A stretch of 64,000 nucleotides of DNA from Candidatus Latescibacterota bacterium (GTDB lineage Bacteria > Latescibacterota > UBA2968 > GCA-2709665). Shown piece by piece: positions 14,208 to 55,167 of the stretch. The DNA is taken from positions 3,648,001 through 3,712,000 of the forward strand of contig OZ244937.1 in NCBI GenBank assembly GCA_965222075.1. Direction: 5' to 3'. Positions within the stretch are counted from its first letter, which is position 1. Each line of letters begins with the position of its first letter. Below the pieces are notes generated by a model. That model was given only the letters and a program-made list of their open reading frames with translations. It made no database searches and was not told the DNA's origin. A program made the translations under genes and the position numbers.

Positions 14208-16541
14208 ATGAAGTACTCCCTTAGAGGTGCGATCCTCCTTTTTTCCTTTTTCCTTTTTCCTTTTTCCTTCTCTTCCCTCTCCTGGGCGCAAACCGGCCGT
14301 ATCACCGGTCAGGTCACCGCACAGGACACCGGCGTCCCCCTCCTCGGCGCCAACGTCGAAGTCCTCGGTCCCAACCTCGTCCGGAAGATGGGAGCGATCA
14401 CCGGCGCCGATGGCCGCTACACGGTCGAAAATGTGCCCGCAGGCACATACACTGTAAAAGCGACCTTTGTGGGGTACTTAGACGCGGCAGTGACAGACAT
14501 CGTGGTCGACGACTCGGTTGAGGTCCACATTGGGATGCTGGCGTCCCCTTACGAGCTGGAAAAGATCGTGGTGTCGGCAAGCCGCCGCGCAGAGAACATC
14601 CTGGACGCCCCGGCCACGATCTCCAAGGTCGGTTGGAAGGAAACCCAAAGAAACACCATTGGAAGCGCTTACCTGAGCGACCTTAAATATGTAAAAGGCA
14701 TCGACTATCAGCAAATCGGCATCTTTCAGGAGCGATACAACACCAGGGGGTACAACTCCGCGTTTAACGTCCGCATGCTCCTCTTAACGGACGGACGTGT
14801 CACCAGAACCTTTGGAGGCAATCCCCTCTACGGCCCGACCATCACCCGGGACGACCTCCAGGCGATGGAAGTCATCGTCGGACCGGGCTCGGCGCTCTAC
14901 GGTCCGGATGCTATATCGGGTGTCATCAGCCTGATGTCAAAAGATCCGCGAGACTTTCAGGGCACCAGCCTCGCCGTTGCCGGCGGCTCTCGAAACCTCT
15001 TTAAAGGACGGTTTCGCCATGCGGAACAGACCGGCAAATGGGGCTGGAAGGTCTCGGGCGAATACCAGAGAGGCCGCGATTTTGAACGGATCACGACATT
15101 CTACAATGCGGACAGCACCGCCTCCGTGACCGGCGATCCGGATTTTGACTCCAACTTTTTAACCGGCGGGTTAGGCCTGTTTTATTACCCGGACCGTCAA
15201 TCTAAGTTCGGGTTTACAGCAGGGGTGACCCGCATGAATCAGATCTTCTTCAACCCCGCGGGCCGCAACCAGACCAAAAATTATGTCTACCACTACCAGC
15301 AGGTAACCTGCACAACGCCGAATCTCTATCTGAATATCTACCGCACGGGAGACACATCGGGCGACTCATTTGGCTTAGACAGGAAAGCGACCTTTCGTCT
15401 GGCCGGTCTACCTGCAGAAGAAGCGGAAGAACGGGCAAGAGATGGGAGTGACGGTTCCTTCTGGGAGGGAGAAGCCCGGTACACCTTCCACTTTCCACAC
15501 CTGAAAAACACCTACTTCACACTGGGATCGAACCTCCGCCACGAGCGCACGGCCGGAAACATTTTTGCCGGAGGGAAAGCAGCGTCGCATCTCGTCGGCT
15601 TCTACGGGCACACAAAGACCGACCTGAACGGGAAACTCAGGGCTGTTTTGGCCGCTCGCATCGACCTACATGAAATCTACGACACACAATTCAGCCCCAA
15701 GGCAGCGCTGATCTTTAAACCGGAACCCGGAATCGCCTTCCGGTTCACCTTCAACCGGGCCTTTAAAAGCCCGACCCTCTTAGAACAGAAGGCCGAGCTC
15801 CCACTCGGCCAGTTCCTGGTCGCCCGCGGCAACAGCAAGGGCTTCCGCTTCGGGAGCCCGACAGGAAACCCGCTGTCGCCCCAATATGCGGCCGGCATCC
15901 CCAAATTGAAGCCCGAGGAAAACACCACATTCGAATTTGGATTCAAAAGCATCCTGGCCAATCGGGTGTTCTTGGACCTCACCGGCTACAGGAGCCGGTA
16001 CAAAGACTTCATCAGCGACGTCCTGCCGGTTGGTGACTTGCGAAGCGGCATTGTCACCTTAGACGAAAACGGAAATCCCAGGGCCGGGGAGCAGACCCTT
16101 TCTCTCATCAACTTCGGGAAACAGACGGTTCTGGGGGTCGATGTGGGGGTGAATGTGTACGCCACAGATCGCCTTCTCCTCAAGGGCAACGCCTCCTTTA
16201 TCAAAACCGACGACCTGGAGGACGCACAGGGTCTGAATGTGCCCTTCAACACCCCGGAGGCCATCCTCAACATCGGTCTTTCGACGAGCGACTTTGTAAC
16301 AAGAGGGACGTCTCTGGACCTCTCACTCCGTCACATCGTCGAACATGACTTCCGTTCGGGCCCCCATGCAGGCACCCTCCCGGCCTATACGGTCGTGGAC
16401 ATAAACGTCGGCTACCAGACGCAGGTTGGGGTTGCCTACAGGGTTTCGGCCCACAACATTCTGAACAACAGGCACAGGGAATTCGTGACCGGACCCGAAA
16501 TCGGAAGGATCGTGGTGGGAGAGGTAGCGTATGGGTTCTAA
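14208..16541 (+). CDS. TonB-dependent outer-membrane receptor with N-terminal carboxypeptidase-regulatory-like domain
   Basis: Signal peptide, GRITGQVT...GANV, IVVSASRRAE, GPGSALYG plug motif and C-terminal YGF. Confidence 0.92.
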   Translation: MKYSLRGAILLFSFFLFPFSFSSLSWAQTGRITGQVTAQDTGVPLLGANVEVLGPNLVRKMGAITGADGRYTVENVPAGTYTVKATFVGYLDAAVTDIVVDDSVEVHIGMLASPYELEKIVVSASRRAENILDAPATISKVGWKETQRNTIGSAYLSDLKYVKGIDYQQIGIFQERYNTRGYNSAFNVRMLLLTDGRVTRTFGGNPLYGPTITRDDLQAMEVIVGPGSALYGPDAISGVISLMSKDPRDFQGTSLAVAGGSRNLFKGRFRHAEQTGKWGWKVSGEYQRGRDFERITTFYNADSTASVTGDPDFDSNFLTGGLGLFYYPDRQSKFGFTAGVTRMNQIFFNPAGRNQTKNYVYHYQQVTCTTPNLYLNIYRTGDTSGDSFGLDRKATFRLAGLPAEEAEERARDGSDGSFWEGEARYTFHFPHLKNTYFTLGSNLRHERTAGNIFAGGKAASHLVGFYGHTKTDLNGKLRAVLAARIDLHEIYDTQFSPKAALIFKPEPGIAFRFTFNRAFKSPTLLEQKAELPLGQFLVARGNSKGFRFGSPTGNPLSPQYAAGIPKLKPEENTTFEFGFKSILANRVFLDLTGYRSRYKDFISDVLPVGDLRSGIVTLDENGNPRAGEQTLSLINFGKQTVLGVDVGVNVYATDRLLLKGNASFIKTDDLEDAQGLNVPFNTPEAILNIGLSTSDFVTRGTSLDLSLRHIVEHDFRSGPHAGTLPAYTVVDINVGYQTQVGVAYRVSAHNILNNRHREFVTGPEIGRIVVGEVAYGF
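14240..14267 (+). repeat. (TTTTTCC)4 tandem heptamer in the signal-peptide coding region
   Basis: Four exact TTTTTCC units read directly from the sequence. Confidence 0.85.
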
Positions 16542-16584
16542 AAAAAACAGCGACCCGGAATGCATTTCGGATCGCTGTTTTTTT
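16540..16584. terminator. Bidirectional intrinsic terminator between the TonB receptor gene and thiC
   Basis: A8-CAGCGACCCGGAATGCATTTCGGATCGCTG-T7. Confidence 0.85.
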
Positions 16585-16602
16585 ATTCGTATTATCCTCT
16601 GT

Positions 16603-18354
<1,752 letters not shown>

Positions 18355-18421: not shown

Positions 18422-18460
18422 TTGAGACACGGTGAACACGTGTTGCAAGATCGTGAAATC

Positions 18461-18530
18461 CGCTTTCCTACGCTGGCATTACCCAGATCAGGTTCACAGG
18501 GTGTGATCTCAGCCGTTTGGCACCCCTTGC
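18461..18530 (-). promoter_or_regulatory. TPP riboswitch
   Basis: GGGGUGC...GGCUGAGA...ACCC..UGAACCUGAUCUGGGUAAUGCCAGCGUAGGAA upstream of thiC; promoter TTGACG-17-TATTTT at 18573-18545. Confidence 0.95.
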
Positions 18531-18696
18531 GGATCTACACAAATAAAATAAGCAAAAAAGAACGATCCGTCAAGGGGGGAATTTCAGATATGTTTTATAA
18601 CTCTTTATCATTTGCTTTCGCTATTTTAACGGGGCGGTGGTCAGACGTTTCCGAAAAACTGAATTCGCCAAAAGTATAGCTGATGCTTTATCCTCT

Positions 18697-28595: not shown

Positions 28596-30257
28596 TCAAC
28601 GCGGCTGCTCTTCGCCCATCTGCTCCAGCTCTTCGGCGATTTCGTCCATCAGGAGGACCAGGTCCAGGACATCTTGGCTCGTGACCGTACCCAGAAACTC
28701 ATCTGAGTCCCTGTCCAGGACGGGTATCACCGACAGCGAGTGATCCGTCATGCGCTTCAGCACGTCCTGGATCGGCTCTTCAGGCAGGGCGTGCGGCGGG
28801 TCCGGGCGCAGCACGTTGCGAAGGGACGTGTCCGCCCAGGAGTCCCTGGGGACGGACGGTAGCCTGGACAGCGACACGATCCCTGCAACGGCGCCTTCGT
28901 CAACCACCACGTAGTCGTGTTGATTCGGCACGATCCAATCGTCGACAAAACTCCTGAGCGACAGCGTTGACTCGGAATAGGTCCGCGTTCTGTCCAGAAC
29001 GTGATTGGCGGTAATGTCTTCCATCGCGTGGCGGGCGAACGAAGGCGGCACAGCGTCCGGCGGTGTAGGGCGGTGCACCCCCCTGGCTCGCTTGACCGCG
29101 AAACTGATCGCCTGAGGCATCAGCACAATGTAGCCGAACATCACGAGCACGAGCAGTGAGAAGACATCCTGCTCGATCACGTCGGTCTCGAGGAGGACGA
29201 GGAGAAGCGCGATCTCCGCCACGCCTTTCGCCATCAGTCCCGCGGCCTGAGCGTAGGGTTTATCCAGCCGCGCCACATAGGTACCGATGAAGGCGCCGGC
29301 GAACTTGCCCAGCAAAGGGATCGTTACCAGCGCGACAATCGTCGCCATCGGCAAGGTCGTAAAAGATAAGTCCAGGCGCAGACCAGCCGAGGCGAAGAAG
29401 AGTGGGACGAACAGGCCCTCCCCTGCGCTCCGAATACCGGGCATAACATCCCGGTGCACCTGACGGGGCAGCCCCGACAGGGCCGCGCCGAAAAGCAGGG
29501 CCCCGATAGAGCCGTGGAGACCGATTTTCTCGGCCACCACCACCATCAGGAAGAGACAGCCGATCAGCAGCCCGAATGACAGCTCGGGCACGTTCAGGAA
29601 GCGATGCAGGTAGACGATGGTGGGCGGCAGGACCCTGGCCGACAGGATCCACGCAACGACCGCGAAGCCTGCGATTTGCCCCAGCAGAATGAGCACGCCT
29701 GCGACGCTCAGTTCGGGGTGGTGTTGGTGTTCGCCAATGGTGAACCCGACCAAGAGCAAGATGATCAACTCGGAGATGATCACCGTGGTGAAAATCTCAA
29801 GCCCGATCGGTTCCTTGAGATACCCATTGTCGGCGAGTACCTTGGCCACAAGGCCCAGGCTGGACAGCGACAGGATGCCGGCTAAGGGCAGCGCCTCCTT
29901 GAACTGGAGGTTGAGGGCGAAATCAACCTTGAAGAGGTTGGACGTGACGACCAGGGCCGCGAGCAGCGAAATGAGCACTGACACGGTCGCGGCGAAGAAA
30001 AACCGGCCGCGGATTGTTGCCACGAAGCCTGCTATATCGATTTCATCGAGGCCAACCAGGAAGAAGAGGACGAAGACGCCGATGCCCAAGAAGAGCTGGA
30101 GTTTGCTCGTCGGCTCGACTATCCCGGCGATGGGTCCAAGCAGGATGCCAGTCACCGTGTACGCGACGATCGAATTCAAGCCAATCCGGCCAAGAATACC
30201 CTCGGCGAGCTTGGCCACGACAACCAGCAAACCGATGGGCAGTAAGGCTTCGATCAT
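28596..30257 (-). CDS. Cation:proton antiporter (CPA2-like) with C-terminal CBS pair
   Basis: About 12 hydrophobic segments, LFFLVGLDE, FVPLFFASAG and KGVAEI; CBS-like tail. Confidence 0.85.
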   Translation of the reverse strand: MIEALLPIGLLVVVAKLAEGILGRIGLNSIVAYTVTGILLGPIAGIVEPTSKLQLFLGIGVFVLFFLVGLDEIDIAGFVATIRGRFFFAATVSVLISLLAALVVTSNLFKVDFALNLQFKEALPLAGILSLSSLGLVAKVLADNGYLKEPIGLEIFTTVIISELIILLLVGFTIGEHQHHPELSVAGVLILLGQIAGFAVVAWILSARVLPPTIVYLHRFLNVPELSFGLLIGCLFLMVVVAEKIGLHGSIGALLFGAALSGLPRQVHRDVMPGIRSAGEGLFVPLFFASAGLRLDLSFTTLPMATIVALVTIPLLGKFAGAFIGTYVARLDKPYAQAAGLMAKGVAEIALLLVLLETDVIEQDVFSLLVLVMFGYIVLMPQAISFAVKRARGVHRPTPPDAVPPSFARHAMEDITANHVLDRTRTYSESTLSLRSFVDDWIVPNQHDYVVVDEGAVAGIVSLSRLPSVPRDSWADTSLRNVLRPDPPHALPEEPIQDVLKRMTDHSLSVIPVLDRDSDEFLGTVTSQDVLDLVLLMDEIAEELEQMGEEQPR

Positions 30258-30463
30258 GGACGGGCTCTCATATCCTCCGGGGATTCAGCAGGAAACCGGA
30301 GATTCCAGGACAAAACGCTGCCACTCACGCCGTTCATTCTATGCTCGATGACTCGAATAATCGCGCGAAACTGGTGTAGCTGCTGTGTCATTTCCACCCT
30401 TGGCACTTCTTCACCAAGTTTACCATAACTGCTTCCGCGAAGCAGTCCCGGACCGACCGCCTC

Positions 30464-30802
30464 CTAGCCGCTGATTGCCGCGAGCGCTTCGGATCGGGAT
30501 ACGTGGACCGGTATGATCTTGTCGAAGCCACTAATCTCAAAGACCTCCCTGATTGGATCTGAGAGCGAGCAGACCACGAATTCCTTGTCCCGTTCCCGAA
30601 GCGTCCTGGCAGTCAGCAGAATGACCCGAAGGCCCGCGCTGCTGATGTAGGAGAGCGCCTCAAAATCCATAATTACGGCACGATCGTCCTCGCCAATTGC
30701 GGCTTCAAGCGCATCCTCAAACTCACGGGCATTGGCACCGTCAACGCGACCCTCTATCTTCACGATCAAGGTTCCGTTTTCCCGCTCGGTGTTAACTTCC
30801 AT
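30464..30802 (-). CDS. STAS-domain anti-anti-sigma factor (RsbV-like)
   Basis: GRVDG, YISSAGLR phospho-Ser motif and EVFEISGF. Confidence 0.92.
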   Translation of the reverse strand: MEVNTERENGTLIVKIEGRVDGANAREFEDALEAAIGEDDRAVIMDFEALSYISSAGLRVILLTARTLRERDKEFVVCSLSDPIREVFEISGFDKIIPVHVSRSEALAAISG

Positions 30803-31143
30803 TGACCCATCTCCTTGATGTTGTGACCCAACCTCTAAGTTACGGTGTCCAAGAGTCTACTGGCAGTTGTGCTCTTGAAACCTGCTAAATAATAGGATTT
30901 TTGAAATGTGTCAAGCACTTTGAAACACCTGCTCCAGGCAAATTAAGAAAGAATATCCTGAGCGACAGAAGGTTCGGTACTTCGTCTGTCAGGTCTCAAT
31001 TTCCATACGCCAATATAGATCCTCTGAAACCATAAATCAAGCGCTTATTTCACGGCAAAGATAATGGCTTACATGAGTTTTTGACGCCGGGGAGACCGTA
31101 CGGCGGTGAAGTTTGCGCCCGGCAAGCCGCTGCAGGGCGTGTC

Positions 31144-31338
31144 TTAAGGGTAGAGCCTTTTGGGGCCCCGGTATATGTAGGTGACTTCCCGGACGTTGCC
31201 GATTCCCAACAGGAGCATCAGCATCCGGGTGAGGTCGCCCTGTTTTTGAGGTGTGTATTCCTGCCGGGCGAGGATCTCAACGGCTTCCGCCAGGGGGACC
31301 CTGGGAAAGGGGATTTCGGGAATTTCGACGGTGACGTG
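31144..31338 (-). pseudogene. Internally deleted remnant of a non-discriminating (archaeal-type) aspartyl-tRNA(Asp/Asn) synthetase
   Basis: Not in the ORF track. It reads VEIPEIPFPRVPLAEAVEIL...KQGDL|TRMLMLLLGIGNVREVTYIYRGPKRLYP*, i.e. the mid-domain PFPR..GDL segment fused to the motif-3 C-terminus. Confidence 0.7.
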
Positions 31339-31477
31339 AGACGTCCAGGCAGACGGGTGGCGTGAGAGATTTCGGAGAGGTTGTGATGCGGTAGATAGGA
31401 CAACCGATGGTCATTGTTTTGTTCTCCAAATTCAGTTCATCACGAAATGCGATCAGGTCCGACATTTTTGGTTGGTT

Positions 31478-32218
31478 TTACCTTTCACCTTTTCTGCCGC
31501 CGAAGACGGCGAGTTCGAAGATTTTGAAATAACAGTCTACATCCTGAAATCCGATCCGCCGCAGCCAATCGCATTGTACTTCTACGGGGGCCAGGATGTT
31601 GGCCTGTTTATCCTCCCGGTGATAATATTCCGCGGCCAGTTCGTCCCGGGTTCGGGCGCCGCCCTGTGTTTGTTCGAGTTCGTAGAGGTTGTCTATAAAG
31701 TGGGTTTCAAAAAGGGATTCAACCCAGGCGGTGGCCGGCGCTACGTGTTCGATGTTGATAAAGATGCCGCCCGGGTTCAGAAGGTTGTGGATTTCTTTGT
31801 AGAATTCCTGTTTGCGTGCGTCGGGTTGATGGTGGATTGCATAACCGGATACGGCAGTATCAAAGGGGGCGTGTTTTTTTATAAATTCGACCCAGGCCGG
31901 ATCGGCGAAGTCGGCGTGGATAAAATGCAGGTTGCCCGCGTACGGTTTCAGGTGATCCCGAGCCGCATTCAGCATCGGTTCGGAGAAATCTATGAGTATA
32001 CCGCGGGCCTTGGGATAACGGCCCAGCAGGGCGGTGGACAGGGCACCTCCTCCACATCCGAGATCCAGGAAGTTCAGGATCTGCCTATTGCTGGCGGAAA
32101 TCACACGCAGCATGATGTCCAGCTGTGTTTCGGCCTGAGGGATTGCCGCCCGGACGCCGGTCAGGTATTTGTTTGTGAGCTGGGAAGATTGCCAGGCACG
32201 GTCTTTTCGCTGCGCCAT
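31478..32218 (-). CDS. Class I SAM-dependent methyltransferase (CmoA-like fold)
   Basis: LDLGCGGG, IDFSEPML, AIHH and LNPGG motifs; RBS AAGGAG before MAQRK. Confidence 0.88.
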   Translation of the reverse strand: MAQRKDRAWQSSQLTNKYLTGVRAAIPQAETQLDIMLRVISASNRQILNFLDLGCGGGALSTALLGRYPKARGILIDFSEPMLNAARDHLKPYAGNLHFIHADFADPAWVEFIKKHAPFDTAVSGYAIHHQPDARKQEFYKEIHNLLNPGGIFINIEHVAPATAWVESLFETHFIDNLYELEQTQGGARTRDELAAEYYHREDKQANILAPVEVQCDWLRRIGFQDVDCYFKIFELAVFGGRKGER

Positions 32219-32245
32219 CAAAACTCCTTGAAGTGTAGAGGCCAA

Positions 32246-32284
32246 TAAAGAAAACCCGCCATCGAGTGGACTCAATGGCGGGTT
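32246..32284 (-). terminator. Leader (attenuator) terminator upstream of the methyltransferase
   Basis: AACCCGCCAUUGAG-UCCA-CUCGAUGGCGGGUU-UUCUUUA. Confidence 0.85.
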
Positions 32285-32307
32285 GCTGATGTTTTTCGTT
32301 TGCGCTG

Positions 32308-32439
32308 CTATACCATGATCCGCCACGGAGTCCCATTATTATTGACCGAATTAAGGTCTACTACAGGGCGTACGACGTCATTTACGCTGCCCCATAGCGT
32401 TCGATTGAGATCCAGGGACCTGTGGCCGATGGTGTTCAT
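32308..32439 (-). CDS. Putative Asn-rich leader peptide (43 aa)
   Basis: MNTIGHRSLDLNRTLWGSVNDVVRPVVDLNSVNNNGTPWRIMV*; AGGA RBS; lies between a promoter and a terminator. Confidence 0.7.
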   Translation of the reverse strand: MNTIGHRSLDLNRTLWGSVNDVVRPVVDLNSVNNNGTPWRIMV

Positions 32440-32481
32440 GAAATTTGTCCTACTTGAAGTTTCGGCGATTGAATTCACGAA

Positions 32482-32510
32482 AAGATAGATGGTTGCCCGT
32501 GTGATGTCAA
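32482..32510 (-). promoter_or_regulatory. Sigma70-type promoter for the leader-methyltransferase operon
   Basis: TTGACA-17 nt-TATCTT. Confidence 0.7.
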
Positions 32511-32525
32511 GGTATTTTCAGGTTC

Positions 32526-32975
32526 CTATCCGTCTGTTCTGCCGCCGCGGCCGGGTCTCCGGCCCCTTTGGAAGCGCTCACCGGCACGCAGTTTGTCCCG
32601 CTGCTCCGGGGTCAGGAGCTGGTTGACCTTGAGGCGGTGGTCGACCCGGGTTTCCAGGATAAGGGAAAGGGCCTGGTTGACTTTGGCGATCCGGGTTTTG
32701 ACTTCGGCAGGGTCGGGATTGTCCTGGCGCGTGATGGCATGGAGGTCCAGACGGGCGATTTTCAGGTCGGCCTCGAGGCGCGCCATGCGTTTGGCGTTGT
32801 TGAGACGCAGGGACTTCAGTTTCTCCCGCTGTTCCGCCGTCAGGTCCAGCGCTTCCATCACGGCCTGCTGGCGGTGCGCCCTTCGGTCTTTTCGCCCACG
32901 CCGCGCGTCCACATCGGCAACGGTCCAGACAACCGCTGCGACGGCGATCAGTGATATCAGACTTCGCGCTTTCAT
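32526..32975 (-). CDS. Spy/CpxP-family periplasmic protein
   Basis: Signal peptide; LDLTAEQ and LLTPEQ (LTxxQ) motifs. Confidence 0.85.
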   Translation of the reverse strand: MKARSLISLIAVAAVVWTVADVDARRGRKDRRAHRQQAVMEALDLTAEQREKLKSLRLNNAKRMARLEADLKIARLDLHAITRQDNPDPAEVKTRIAKVNQALSLILETRVDHRLKVNQLLTPEQRDKLRAGERFQRGRRPGRGGRTDG

Positions 32976-33055
32976 GGTGGTCTCCCCTTTCTGTTATTGA
33001 AGGTTGAATATTGCCAGAATTGACTATTGGAAAATCTTCAACACCTCTCCTGTGG

Positions 33056-33490
33056 TCATGGCGGCCGGCCCCTCGGTGAGGGGCCTCGCATCCAGTGGCG
33101 CGCGAACTGGGAGAATGTTTTGTCGTATTCCTTCTGCTGTTCGGACGTGAGGATCTCCCGGATTTTCGACCGCGTGGCGGTCAACAGGTCTTTCATCCCT
33201 TTTCTGATCTCTTTGCGCTGCGCCATCATCTGTTCACGGCTTTCGTCTAAGATCCGTTTGACTTTTCGCTCCTGCTCCGGGGTGAGGTCCAGGTGTCGGG
33301 TAAACCGATGGATCAGTCTTTCCTGAGAGCGGGGGCCTCTGAATGAGGGACGACGAGAGAAAAAGGCCTTCGGAGGACGCCCCCGGCCAAGCAGCACCCA
33401 GCGCTCGACGGTCGCTCCGCACACCGCGCCGAGCAGGAAAAGCCCCAGGATGAGCAGCACGGCTTTTGATCTGGAAGAGAGAGAGAGCAT
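33056..33490 (-). CDS. Membrane-anchored LTxxQ (Spy/heavy-metal sensor-like) protein
   Basis: N-terminal TM segment; LDLTPEQ and ILTSEQ motifs. Confidence 0.75.
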   Translation of the reverse strand: MLSLSSRSKAVLLILGLFLLGAVCGATVERWVLLGRGRPPKAFFSRRPSFRGPRSQERLIHRFTRHLDLTPEQERKVKRILDESREQMMAQRKEIRKGMKDLLTATRSKIREILTSEQQKEYDKTFSQFARHWMRGPSPRGRPP

Positions 33491-33493
33491 GGG

Positions 33494-33964
33494 TTACCTC
33501 GGCTGCGATGACGGTTCGGCAACAGAACCGGTCAGGAGAAGGATGTCGTCGCGAGAGAGTTCGGTGTCGTTCAGAACCAGTTCTTCGGGGCCTTCCCACT
33601 GCGCCTTGAGGTAGTCCTCCAGTGTTACGGTGGGATCGTCGCCGTTGAGGCTGCCCATTACGGCCAGCAGCAGCACTGCGGCCGCGGCCAGGAAGGGGAC
33701 CAGCCGCACCCCGGCCCACTCGAAGTGCCCCCAGAAGAGGATGACCTTCTCAGCCCGGATACGCTCGGCAACCCCGTCCCAGAGGCCGGGCGAGGGGTCC
33801 TTGAACCTGCATTTGACCGCGTCCTGGATGCGCCTGAGGTAGGCCAGTTCCTCACCGCAGTCCGTGCAGAGGGCGAGGTGGGCCTCAATCTGGCGTACCT
33901 CACCTTCTGTAAGGTTGTCATCCAAATAGGGTAAGAGGCGTTCTTTGACGTGGGTCTCGTTCAT
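33494..33964 (-). CDS. Zinc-finger (zf-HC2) anti-sigma factor
   Basis: YLD..L...HLALCTDC motif plus a TM segment; ATGA overlap with the sigma gene. Confidence 0.88.
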   Translation of the reverse strand: MNETHVKERLLPYLDDNLTEGEVRQIEAHLALCTDCGEELAYLRRIQDAVKCRFKDPSPGLWDGVAERIRAEKVILFWGHFEWAGVRLVPFLAAAAVLLLAVMGSLNGDDPTVTLEDYLKAQWEGPEELVLNDTELSRDDILLLTGSVAEPSSQPR

Positions 33965-34551
33965 GCCGGTTCCCCCCCAGTCCATTCGGTGTAGATCGGC
34001 CGCAGCAGGTCTCTCAGGTGCGCCCGTGCCCGCGAGAGCCGGGATTTGACCGTGCCGACGGAACAGTTCAGCGCATCGGCGATTTCGTCCTGCGACAGCC
34101 CTTCGATGTCTTTGAGCACGACCACCGCGCGGTGGTCGGGTGAGAGGCTATTGAGTACGGCCTGGATGCTTTCTTGCAGTTCAGTCCGTTCCAGGTCATT
34201 TTCGGGGTGCCGGGTTTCAAAGAGACGTTCGGGCGAGATCTTTCTGGATTCCACGAGGGCTTCCAGAGAGACACCATCGGGCCGGCGGCGTTCCTTCTGG
34301 GCTGCATTGAGACAGGTGTTTACAGCAATGCGATAGAGCCATGTGTAGAATCCGGATTCCGCCCGAAAGTCCGACAGGGCCTGATAGGCCCGAAAAAAGG
34401 CTTCCTGGGCCGCATCCCGGGCGGCCTCCCGGTCACCCAAGATGGAACAGGCCAGGGTGTAAATCCGTCCCTCGTAACGTTCCACCAGTTTCCGGAACGC
34501 CTGGAGATCCCCCTTCTGACACCGTCTGACCAGTTTCAGGTCTTCGTCCAT
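33961..34551 (-). CDS. ECF RNA polymerase sigma factor (RpoE-like)
   Basis: DAAQEAF, FYTWLYRIAVN and GTVKSRLSRAR motifs. Confidence 0.95.
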   Translation of the reverse strand: MDEDLKLVRRCQKGDLQAFRKLVERYEGRIYTLACSILGDREAARDAAQEAFFRAYQALSDFRAESGFYTWLYRIAVNTCLNAAQKERRRPDGVSLEALVESRKISPERLFETRHPENDLERTELQESIQAVLNSLSPDHRAVVVLKDIEGLSQDEIADALNCSVGTVKSRLSRARAHLRDLLRPIYTEWTGGEPA

Positions 34552-34717
34552 TCAGGCTCCCGGAGGTAATCGGTAGTCAGTCCTCAGTAAACCGAAAGCA
34601 ACCACGGATGGACTACGGATAAAGGGATCAAAAGATGAGGACTGAAGGCTGGCGGCCAGGTTTCGGTGTTTCTAATATCTTAGACAGCAGGTGGCTTGTA
34701 GACGTTCCAACCGGATC

Positions 34718-34750
34718 AAAAAAAAAGGGTGTCGCTTGTAGGCGACACCC
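34718..34750 (-). terminator. Intrinsic terminator after ilvB
   Basis: GGGUGUCGC-CUACAA-GCGACACCC-U9. Confidence 0.85.
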
Positions 34751-34776
34751 GGTAGCGTCGGTTGTTTTGCGGGTTT

Positions 34777-36555
34777 CTATTCGGTGATGATGTCCGCAAA
34801 GGTCTTTCCGGAGGGGATCATGGGCAGCACGTGCTCCTGATAGGGCACGATGACGTCAAGGAGGTAAGGCCCCGGTGTTTGGATCATACGCTCCAGAGCA
34901 GCGGGCAGGTCCTTTTTATGTACCACCTGCTCGGCGGGGATGCGGAATCCGCCGGCGATTTTGACAAAGTCGGGATGAAAGCCTTTCCCTTCCGGATCTC
35001 CGATGAAGGTATGCCCCCTGTTGCTTTCGTACAATATATCTTCCCACTGGACCACCATGCCCAGGTGCTGGTTGTTCAGGATCATTGTCTTCACCGGAAT
35101 CTTTTCGGCGTAGAGGGTGGCCAGTTCCTGGACGTTCATGACAAAGCTGCCGTCCCCGTCGATGTCGATCACCAGGGCGTCGGGCCTGGCCATTTGCGCA
35201 CCCAGGGCCGCAGGCAGACCAAATCCCATTGCCCCAAGGCCGCCGGAGGTGAGCCAGTTGCGGGGTTCGTCAAAAAGGTAATACTGTGCCGCCCACATCT
35301 GGTGCTGGCCCACGCCTGTGGTGATGATGGCCTTTCCCTTTGTCAGTCTGTAGAGCAGGTCGATGGCATACTGCGGCAGGATTTCGTCTTTCAGGTCTTT
35401 GTATCTCATGGGGTGTTTTTTGCGCCAGGTGTCCAGTTCGGCGTGCCAGGCGCTGTAGTCGCCCGGTTCGACCAGGCCGTTGAGGTCTTCTAAGGCGTAC
35501 TTGACGTCGCTAACAACCGAGATATGGGCCTCTTTGTTTTTGTTGATTTCCGAGGGGTCAATGTCGATATGTACGATCTTTCCATGCTTGCAAAATTCTT
35601 CGAGCTTTCCGGTCACGCGGTCGTCGAACCGGACGCCCATGGCCAGCAGGAGGTCAGCGTGGTTGATGGCGTAGTTGGCATAAACGGTGCCGTGCATGCC
35701 CACCATCCGGAGCGAGAGGGGATCGTTTTCCGGGAAGACGCCCAATCCCATCAGGGTCTGCACCACCGGGATGTGGGTTTTCCTGACCAGTTCGCGGAGT
35801 TCATCAGCACCCCCAGAGGAGACGACGCCTCCTCCAACGTAGAGGACGGGGCGTTTGGACTCCCGAATGGCCTGCGCCACGACTTGAATCTCTTCCCGGC
35901 CGGCCCGCACGTGTGGGTTGTAGCTGCGGATCGCAACCTGGTCTGGATAGATGGGCACGGTGTAGCCCTGCTGGACGTCTTTGGGGACGTCGATCAGAAC
36001 CGGCCCGGGGCGTCCGGTATTTGCGATGTAGAAGGCCTCTTTGACGATTCTTGGGATGTTATCGATGTGATCCACCAGGAAGTTATGTTTTGTAATCTGG
36101 CGGGTGACCTCAATAATGGGTGTCTCCTGAAAGGCGTCTCCCCCCATGAGGTGGGTTGGGACCTGGCCCGTGATGGCGACAACAGGCACGGAGTCCATTT
36201 TGGCATCTGCCAGCCCGGTTACCAGGTTGGTAGCCCCTGGCCCTGAGGTGGCGATGCAGACGCCCACCTTGCCGGATGCCTTGGCATAGCCCTCTGCGGC
36301 GAAGATTTCGCCCTGTTCGTGCCGGCAGAGCACACACCGGATGTTGGACCGGGTGATCGCCTGGTGGATTTCCATGCTGGCCCCGCCCGGGTATCCGAAG
36401 ACCAGATCAACGCCTTGCCTCGCCAGGGCTTCCACCAGGATGTCGGCGCCTTTTACCGGTTCTGCAGACGGTTGGGGAGGGGCCTGGGACATCGCTACCC
36501 GCTCTGCGCGCCCGTTGTCTTTCAGGGCGTCTACGGCCTCTGGTTTGTTTGCCAT
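34777..36555 (-). CDS. ilvB: Acetolactate synthase large subunit
   Basis: [35 protein letters not shown] and MIPSG motifs. Confidence 0.96.

Positions 36556-55094: not shown

Positions 55095-55167
<73 letters not shown>

Follow-up and report, generated by a model that had tools for sequence, protein, structure and literature searches.

Attenuation of transcription by a leader peptide is well established in textbooks; most known cases come from Proteobacteria, with a few from Actinobacteria. In the Escherichia coli pheST system, with its pheM leader peptide, a short open reading frame (ORF) rich in cognate codons and an overlapping antiterminator and terminator stand before the synthetase gene. 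An auxiliary, indolmycin-resistant TrpRS of Streptomyces coelicolor is reportedly, in work by Vecchione and Sello from 2010, under ribosome-mediated attenuation, a spare synthetase being switched on through a leader peptide when cognate charging drops. Attenuation can also be multivalent, as in the enterobacterial ilvGMEDA and ilvBN leaders, where a single leader contains the codons of several amino acids, and shortage of any of them relieves termination. Here we analyse a leader at positions 32246–32510, minus strand, of a stretch of 64,000 nucleotides (the window; contig OZ244937.1 of a Candidatus Latescibacterota bacterium) that shares features with each of these systems.

The locus resembles pheST in its cognate-codon-rich short ORF, its predicted overlapping RNA structures and, in relatives, the synthetase gene behind them, but its codons are those for Val, Asn and Asp, its host belongs to an uncultured phylum, and it has no sequence or covariance-model likeness to the Rfam leader families. 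It shares a spare synthetase behind a leader peptide with the S. coelicolor system, but here each operon holds two spare synthetases, its head leader is composite and another leader lies inside the operon. The amino acids read by the ilv leaders are products of one branched pathway, whereas those at issue here are substrates of two unrelated synthetases encoded one after the other, and the distal gene has an attenuator of its own. That distal gene encodes AspRS2, probably a non-discriminating aspartyl-tRNA synthetase (AspRS) of archaeal type; such an enzyme beside a normal AspRS and an AsnRS is likewise found in Thermus and Deinococcus, where AspRS2 and GatCAB are said, in work by Min et al. 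from 2002 and by Becker and Kern, to provide a route to Asn-tRNA. We know of no description of AspRS2 in Thermus or Deinococcus that includes an Asn/Asp leader peptide. Attenuators before synthetase genes are already known; neither the searched literature nor Rfam contains Asn, Asp or synthetase-linked Val specificities. In a full-text literature search, no report of a synthetase gene with a Val, Asn or Asp leader turned up. A Shewanella paper includes, ahead of aspS, a "tRNA synthetase leader" that is uncharacterised.

We call the element leader 1. It is probably a classical ribosome-mediated attenuator that reads Val codons together with Asn/Asp codons, a reading for which all the evidence is computational. 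Its anatomy, its conservation, the operon content of relatives and the match between leader codons and downstream genes were observed directly; from these we infer leader translation, stall sites and a response to tRNA charging, with the stall positions taken from geometry only. A preliminary description of the window had proposed that the leader senses Asn-tRNA. That proposal is supported in part but incomplete: Asn is enriched in the leader, and its Asn codons align with the leaders of genomes that carry AspRS2 only, but the seven Val codons and a second valyl-tRNA synthetase (ValRS2) in the relatives' operon had been overlooked. The parts of the leader and the gene behind it, in window positions, are as follows.

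32482–32510, minus strand: sigma-70-type leader promoter (−35 at 32510–32505, −10 at 32487–32482)
32448–32451, minus strand: Shine-Dalgarno-like AGGA, with the ATG 8 nt further 3'
32308–32439, minus strand: leader ORF 1, 43 codons plus TAG
32415–32426, minus strand: segment 1, pairing as the 5' strand with segment 2 in a long-range helix (minimum-energy fold)
32335–32385, minus strand: proposed sensing stretch, codons 19–35 (per-codon table, codon usage, enrichment)
32320–32334, minus strand: segment 2, antiterminator 5' strand, within codons 36–40 (sequence and fold)
32253–32284, minus strand: intrinsic terminator stem-loop, 14 pairs (8 G-C) and a 4-nt loop
32243–32252, minus strand: T-rich terminator tail (terminator call)
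31478–32218, minus strand: class I S-adenosylmethionine-dependent methyltransferase, 246 aa (Pfam Methyltransf_25, E = 2e-18)

All the parts of the classical leader-peptide geometry are present in the sequence or its predicted folds, and in the right order, as the preliminary description had claimed. The TTGACA-type promoter stands where it had been placed (−35 start 32510, −10 end 32482, spacer 17), matches the consensus at 10 of 12 positions, and ranks best among 6 promoter-like sites in 30000–35000 (2.1 ± 1.3 in shuffles); the five first bases around the −35 hexamer are identical in all eight genomes that carry the leader. The AGGA ribosome-binding site was likewise recovered at 32451–32448. 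The 43-aa ORF holds 7 Asn (6 AAT, 1 AAC) and 3 Asp, as originally counted, along with 7 Val (5 GTA, 2 GTC), and Val, Asn and Asp account for 13 of the 17 codons between 19 and 35, including a triple of AAT at 32343–32335. The strong terminator, with its 14-pair stem and T-rich tail, does lie 28 nt ahead of the next start codon after leader 1, that of the methyltransferase at 32218. Its 5' arm and loop (32281–32268) also serve as segment 3 of the predicted antiterminator, in which 13 of 14 positions pair with 32333–32320 (12 Watson-Crick, 1 G-U, 1 C/U mismatch). Folding recovered both of the RNA states that the preliminary description had envisaged. Folded at full length, the leader has a minimum-energy structure (−75.8 kcal/mol, z = −3.0; as good in 1 of 200 shuffles) that consists of the terminator and a long-range helix enclosing two hairpins, and a transcript cut ahead of the terminator 3' arm folds with the antiterminator helix in the terminator's place. 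The fold makes segment 1 a possible anti-antiterminator.

A BLAST search of the 291-nt leader against G000 and 60 related genomes returned full-length homologues in 7 of the 60 others, at 71–86% identity. Start codon (ATG), stop codon (TAG) and frame persist in all eight genomes despite an in-frame 6-nt indel, giving peptides of 41–43 residues. Differences per site amount to 0.045 in the terminator, the best-conserved part of the leader, 0.23 in the ORF, 0.35 in the 5' untranslated region and 0.36 in the promoter. Within the ORF, variable sites number 24, 23 and 18 at codon positions 1, 2 and 3, so that third positions vary least, and over all pairs of genomes there are 482 non-synonymous against 94 synonymous codon differences. 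The GTA codons 19, 23 and 26 are invariant in 8/8 genomes, Asn or Asp is retained at codons 28, 30 and 33, and Val, Asn and Asp interchange at codons 20, 27, 28 and 30. The frame is kept while the protein is not, a pattern that, judged from sequence, fits a peptide whose codons rather than residues matter.

This pattern bears on whether the region could instead be a small independent gene, for a 43-aa protein or a small RNA, or the 3' untranslated region and terminator of the upstream LTXXQ-family gene. Promoter, ORF and terminator do make a complete unit, and contigs from RNA libraries span 32190–32668, one of them bridging from the upstream gene. These contigs (X1, 32206–32516; X2, 32271–32668; X3, 32291–32459; X4, 32190–32402) come from four metatranscriptome runs of one study, may include DNA, and reveal no transcript starts or ends; the methyltransferase body is without contig cover in these four runs, an absence that cannot be read as termination. 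The unconserved peptide sequence speaks against a small protein, an antiterminator overlapping the terminator would be unneeded at a simple gene end, and related cassettes, described below, precede amino-acid or synthetase genes while their upstream neighbours vary. We therefore regard such a gene or 3' end as highly unlikely.

Codon choice within leader 1 is itself unusual. Against a background of 1705 long ORFs of the window genome, in which GTA, at 9.6%, is the least used of the Val codons and AAT makes up 35% of Asn codons, the leader uses GTA for 5 of its 7 Val and AAT for 6 of its 7 Asn. Across the eight genomes the leader peptides contain 4–7 Asn among 41–43 residues, compared with 2.8% in long ORFs (binomial tail 1.4e-4 to 2.9e-2), and 13–17 Val, Asn and Asp residues taken together (tail 2.3e-4 to 1.7e-2). 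Asn is the most enriched residue, and two Asn codons lie just ahead of segment 2 in 6/8 genomes; on these grounds the leader could be an Asn-only attenuator, its Val codons being incidental or serving RNA structure. The three GTA codons, however, are invariant in all eight genomes although GTA is the rarest Val codon, and the genes behind the leader in relatives, and behind its sister leaders, carry this comparison further.

In the genus-g2 relatives, leader 1 is followed by an internally deleted methyltransferase remnant, ValRS2, a second leader (leader 2) and AspRS2. The first synthetase behind the leader is therefore a second ValRS, again at odds with an Asn-only attenuator; it scores 1017 bits against NF009687 (cut-off 738), and canonical valS lies elsewhere in the genome in 5/5 genomes checked. 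AspRS2 in these relatives is a 439-aa enzyme that scores 474.6 bits against NF003483 (cut-off 353) and 384 bits against TIGR00458 (cut-off 368.4), both of them aspartate--tRNA(Asn) ligase models, and by family membership it is probably of the non-discriminating, archaeal type. The link that the preliminary description drew to an enzyme of this type is upheld by the intact gene in the relatives' operon, and the remnant that it noticed behind the methyltransferase proved to be an in-frame stump matching that gene.

31147–31329, minus strand: AspRS2 stump, 61 residues, in frame (residues about 272–305 fused to 411–439, with matches to 272–315 and 411–439 of the relatives' enzyme; 79% identity over the last 29)
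31340–31427, minus strand: truncated leader 2 remnant (ribosome-binding site 31427–31423, ATG 31414, first 25 codons to 31340)

In the window, then, ValRS2 is deleted, and AspRS2 and leader 2 are reduced to stumps; the deletion that joins the leader 2 remnant to the AspRS2 stump has removed the Asn/Asp stretch and the terminator of leader 2. In a sister genome, G001, leader 1, the methyltransferase and AspRS2 are all intact, and a fragment of ValRS2 remains. Because both synthetase genes are lost, only the methyltransferase, the sole intact gene remaining behind leader 1 in the window, is still open to regulation here.

The losses, with leader 2 cut after codon 25 and the methyltransferase an internally deleted remnant in the g2 relatives, would also suit a relic, that is, the attenuator of a former synthetase operon whose selected regulatory role is gone from the window genome. 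Leader 1, however, is complete both here and in the sister genome where AspRS2 persists, the window methyltransferase is intact, and its orthologues lie directly upstream of an Asn/Asp leader and AspRS2 in family f2 (L127–L141), so that the pairing of methyltransferase and AspRS2 is conserved across families. We consider the relic improbable and prefer the reading as a probable attenuator of Val and Asn/Asp specificity.

The window genome has an AsnRS (490 bits, cut-off 342.6), GatB and an AsnB-type asparagine synthetase, and since it has AsnRS and GatB, AspRS2 would have been an auxiliary route to Asn-tRNA. GatB was found in 5/5 and the AsnB-type synthetase in 3/5 genomes checked, with no clean tie to retention or loss of AspRS2. 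In a further relative, G004 (L032 436–1416), a transposase-like ORF replaces the head leader directly upstream of ValRS2, with leader 2 and AspRS2 present.

Leader 2, between ValRS2 and AspRS2, consists of a ribosome-binding site and a 46-codon ORF in 6/6 genomes. Its peptides contain 3–8 Asn and 2–4 Asp, codons 24–35 are rich in Asn, Asp and His in all six, and a segment of the leader is complementary to the 5' arm of its own terminator. Among the six sequences the leader 2 antiterminator has 65 of 66 cells paired with 2 compensatory pairs, the terminator has 93% of cells paired with 1 compensatory pair, and one column of the shared arm changes jointly with both its partners. The Asn/Asp stretch (L025 7090–7130 and the other leader 2 ORFs) also holds 1–4 His and 0–3 Tyr codons. 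All four of these codon families are of the NAY type, and the His and Tyr codons may reflect mutational drift between neighbouring codons or have a meaning of their own.

Sister leaders before a single synthetase separate the two specificities. AspRS2 orthologues occur in 26/168 genomes of the phylum, and 18 further AspRS2 loci were inspected for leaders (L145, at a contig end, and L147, whose gene has two stops, were left out). In genus g6, where AspRS2 stands without ValRS2, 14/14 loci have a 29–44-codon ORF directly upstream, followed by a terminator, and each of these ORFs contains seven consecutive Asn/Asp codons and no Val. Three more AspRS2-only loci are found in genus g3 and family f4; G007 and G058 have tandem Asn/Asp-rich leaders, and G003 has a first leader and an Asn/Asp-rich stretch whose frame stays open up to the terminator. 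No leader adjoins AspRS2 in G054, where a match to the covariance model introduced below lies 2.6 kb upstream, ahead of ABC-transporter genes. Across the AspRS2-only leaders, Val codons number 0–3.

ValRS2 orthologues occur in 12/132 genomes of the class. The five ValRS2-only loci of family f3 have first leaders with 2–11 Val, 0–1 Asn and runs of GTA, and 2/5 bear a second, Val-rich leader; no AspRS2 orthologue was found in the five f3 genomes, in which the best matches (31–34% identity) are located elsewhere. Another Latescibacterota ValRS locus, L057, was rejected as a leader case, having no leader behind its plain promoter. Outside the phylum, ValRS2 is closest to ValRS of Chloroflexota (Anaerolineae and Ktedonobacteria; 53–63% identity, L042–L121), which suggests, on sequence similarity, that the second ValRS was acquired by horizontal transfer. 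Even a weak Val-rich upstream ORF was found at just 2/72 Chloroflexota valS loci, which gives no indication of a Val leader having arrived with the gene.

Thus, Val runs precede ValRS2 alone, Asn/Asp runs precede AspRS2 alone, and both precede the operon with the two synthetases, from which we conclude that leader 1 probably reads Val as well as Asn/Asp. An Asn-only attenuator draws support from the alignment of the leader 1 Asn codons ahead of segment 2 with the Asn/Asp stretch of the AspRS2-only first leaders of G007, G058 and G003. It sits poorly with ValRS2-only leaders that have GTA runs and almost no Asn and with AspRS2-only leaders that have few or no Val, and we hold it to be unlikely.

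We examined pairing and covariation in three sets of sequences. In the eight leader 1 sequences, segments 2 and 3 have 88.4% of cells paired, compared with 30–57% in slid controls. Aligning the first leaders of G007, G058 and G003 to the 3' half of leader 1 gives 11 sequences, in which the terminator has 93.7% of cells paired and 2 compensatory pairs, a result reached by 2 of 500 shuffles. The third alignment, of 22 sequences, comprised leader 2 of six relatives and 16 leaders of other families. Its terminator is 95.9% paired with 5 compensatory pairs and its antiterminator 89.8% paired with 3 compensatory pairs; the observed covariation was reached in 0 of 500 shuffles for either helix, and slid controls were far lower. 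Since these sequences are kin, the covariation represents a few independent events and not 22.

RNA structure of this kind might also belong to a leader that works like a riboswitch or binds a factor; its ORF would then be incidental, and a ligand, tRNA or protein would stabilise the long-range helix and thereby select the terminator. The full fold, with that helix around two hairpins, and the low variation at third codon positions, which points to constraint at the nucleotide level, would both suit such an element. No Rfam family, T-box included, matches 31000–33500 at E up to 10, and none matches the relatives' leaders; the Rfam leader families (Thr, His, Leu, Trp and Phe) give no hit at the gathering score in the window or at the loci of six relatives, the Thr_leader model scoring 14 bits on a relative's leader against a gathering score of 55. 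The retention of start, stop and frame across an in-frame indel is hard to square with an incidental ORF, and the cassettes share no sequence upstream of segment 2 and yet have codon runs that follow their cargo, unlike a common aptamer. An aptamer-like leader is therefore very unlikely in our view.

For ribosome-mediated attenuation by Val and Asn/Asp codons, we propose the following mechanism. Transcription would begin at the conserved promoter, and a ribosome would translate the 43-codon leader. When Val-, Asn- and Asp-tRNA are plentiful, the ribosome would reach codons 36–43 and the stop, covering segment 2 (32334–32320); the terminator at 32284–32253 would then fold, and transcription would stop 28 nt short of the methyltransferase start. 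Should any of these charged tRNAs be scarce, the ribosome would stall within codons 19–35, at the rare GTA or at AAT, GAC or GAT, leaving segment 2 free to pair with the terminator 5' arm, and RNA polymerase would continue. In the ancestral operon, read-through would have yielded the methyltransferase and the second ValRS and, past the Asn/Asp attenuator, AspRS2 as well, which with GatCAB would make Asn-tRNA without free asparagine. Because AspRS2 sits behind both attenuators, the head leader would have to open on Asn/Asp shortage too. Leader 1 would thus act as an OR gate for shortage of Val and of Asn/Asp, and leader 2 as a further Asn/Asp gate. With ValRS2, AspRS2 and leader 2 decayed in the window genome, the intact leader 1 would gate the methyltransferase alone.

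Several observations weigh against this reading. Enrichment of Val taken alone is modest (tail 0.037–0.11), and the first leader of L036, in f3, contains just 2 Val. The preliminary description expected the Asn codons to be conserved in relatives; two at the same place are kept in 6/8 genomes, as noted above, but the AAT triple is found in 1/8. It also suggested looking for a conserved ORF with covarying helices, and while the ORF (8/8) and the covariation of the terminator agree with this, the leader 1 antiterminator shows no covariation above shuffles: there is no compensatory change among the eight genomes, and in the 11-sequence alignment it is 84.9% paired with 1 compensatory cell, a level reached by 125 of 500 shuffles. 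The helix of segments 1 and 2 (87.5% paired in 8 genomes, 1 compensatory cell) is likewise not above shuffles. The Shine-Dalgarno match is weak in the genus-g2 relatives, independent initiation at the leader promoter is only putative because contig X2 bridges the upstream gene and the leader, and the loss of both synthetase genes from the window leaves the leader without the cargo that its codons would match.

Two further difficulties concern the switch itself. In a mask scan, an equilibrium fold with a ribosome-sized mask placed at each codon, the terminator persists at every mask position in 6/8 genomes, and in the other two, G000 and G001, it yields only with the mask on codons 4–11, which are not the Val/Asn/Asp codons. 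Folding at equilibrium represents a kinetic switch poorly, and as the very stable terminator wins at any mask position in 6/8 genomes, the scan says little on such a switch. The AAT triple, moreover, abuts segment 2, and a ribosome on the last Asn codons would cover part of it; stalls at codons 19–33 therefore fit better. A similarly tight spacing between codon run and segment is seen in the clear Asn/Asp and Val runs of sister leaders.

To follow the cassette beyond the two synthetases, we built a covariance model, R1, from the 3' module of leader 1 aligned with the AspRS2-only first leaders. At E <= 0.001 it matches 39/151 phylum genomes; the flagged element is its only match in the window genome. 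Sixteen further R1 loci were inspected for leader content and for the gene behind.

asd: 4 loci, leader Lys- and Thr-rich
AspRS2: 2 loci, Asn/Asp run
lysS: 1 locus, leader Lys- and Asn-rich
ValRS2: 1 locus, four-Val run
ilvB: 1 locus, two tandem Leu- and Val-rich leaders
ABC ATPase genes: 2 loci, leader specificity unassigned
MFS transporter: 1 locus, leader specificity unassigned
Gene behind unclear: 4 loci, leader specificity unassigned

The leader codon run tracks the gene behind: Val with ValRS2, Asn/Asp with AspRS2, Lys/Thr with asd, Lys/Asn with lysS and Leu/Val with ilvB. We tentatively suggest, as a possibility short of our main conclusion, that the Latescibacterota possess a re-usable attenuator chassis whose codon runs (Val, Asn/Asp, Lys/Thr, Lys/Asn, Leu/Val) have been rewritten repeatedly to suit the gene behind, and that the flagged leader is a two-specificity composite within a two-tier circuit driving a spare-synthetase stress operon, with the methyltransferase as a partner of AspRS2. 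The chassis, as part of this joint and equally tentative reading, might be the conserved antiterminator-terminator module that closes the leader ORF. An uncultured phylum appears to use one type of cassette widely, with a codon run that predicts the gene behind. The set would offer a clean natural experiment on the evolution of new attenuator specificities and would help to annotate spare synthetases and tRNA-dependent asparagine synthesis where the organisms cannot be cultured. The window's own interest is lower, the element there being the surviving head of a decayed synthetase operon.

Individual R1 loci are as follows. The Lys/Thr leaders before aspartate-semialdehyde dehydrogenase are at L159, L162, L163 and L166 (genus g30), and the Lys/Asn leader before lysS is at L168 (G064). 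Tandem Leu/Val-rich cassettes stand ahead of the acetolactate synthase large subunit at L158 1354–1900 (G056); the window's own ilvB (34777–36555, minus strand) has no leader. Leader-like ORFs were also seen before drrA-like ABC ATPase genes and an MFS transporter (L161 in G054, L171 in G015 and L160 in G050), and in G054 AspRS2 lies directly 3' of the ABC genes.

Elsewhere in the window, the closest solved relative of the methyltransferase is 3dtn, a putative methyltransferase (E = 9.8e-29). The region upstream of the leader (32526–34551, minus strand) encodes an extracytoplasmic function (ECF)-type sigma factor, a putative anti-sigma factor and two LTXXQ/heavy-metal-resistance family proteins, and is syntenic in relatives. 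A weak model match at 16540–16662 (minus strand) was rejected as a leader, as it corresponds to the 3' end of thiC and its terminator. A thiamine pyrophosphate (TPP) riboswitch (18448–18537, minus strand; 73.3 bits) lies ahead of thiC (16603–18342, minus strand), and the window contains a tRNA gene at 55095–55167 on the plus strand.

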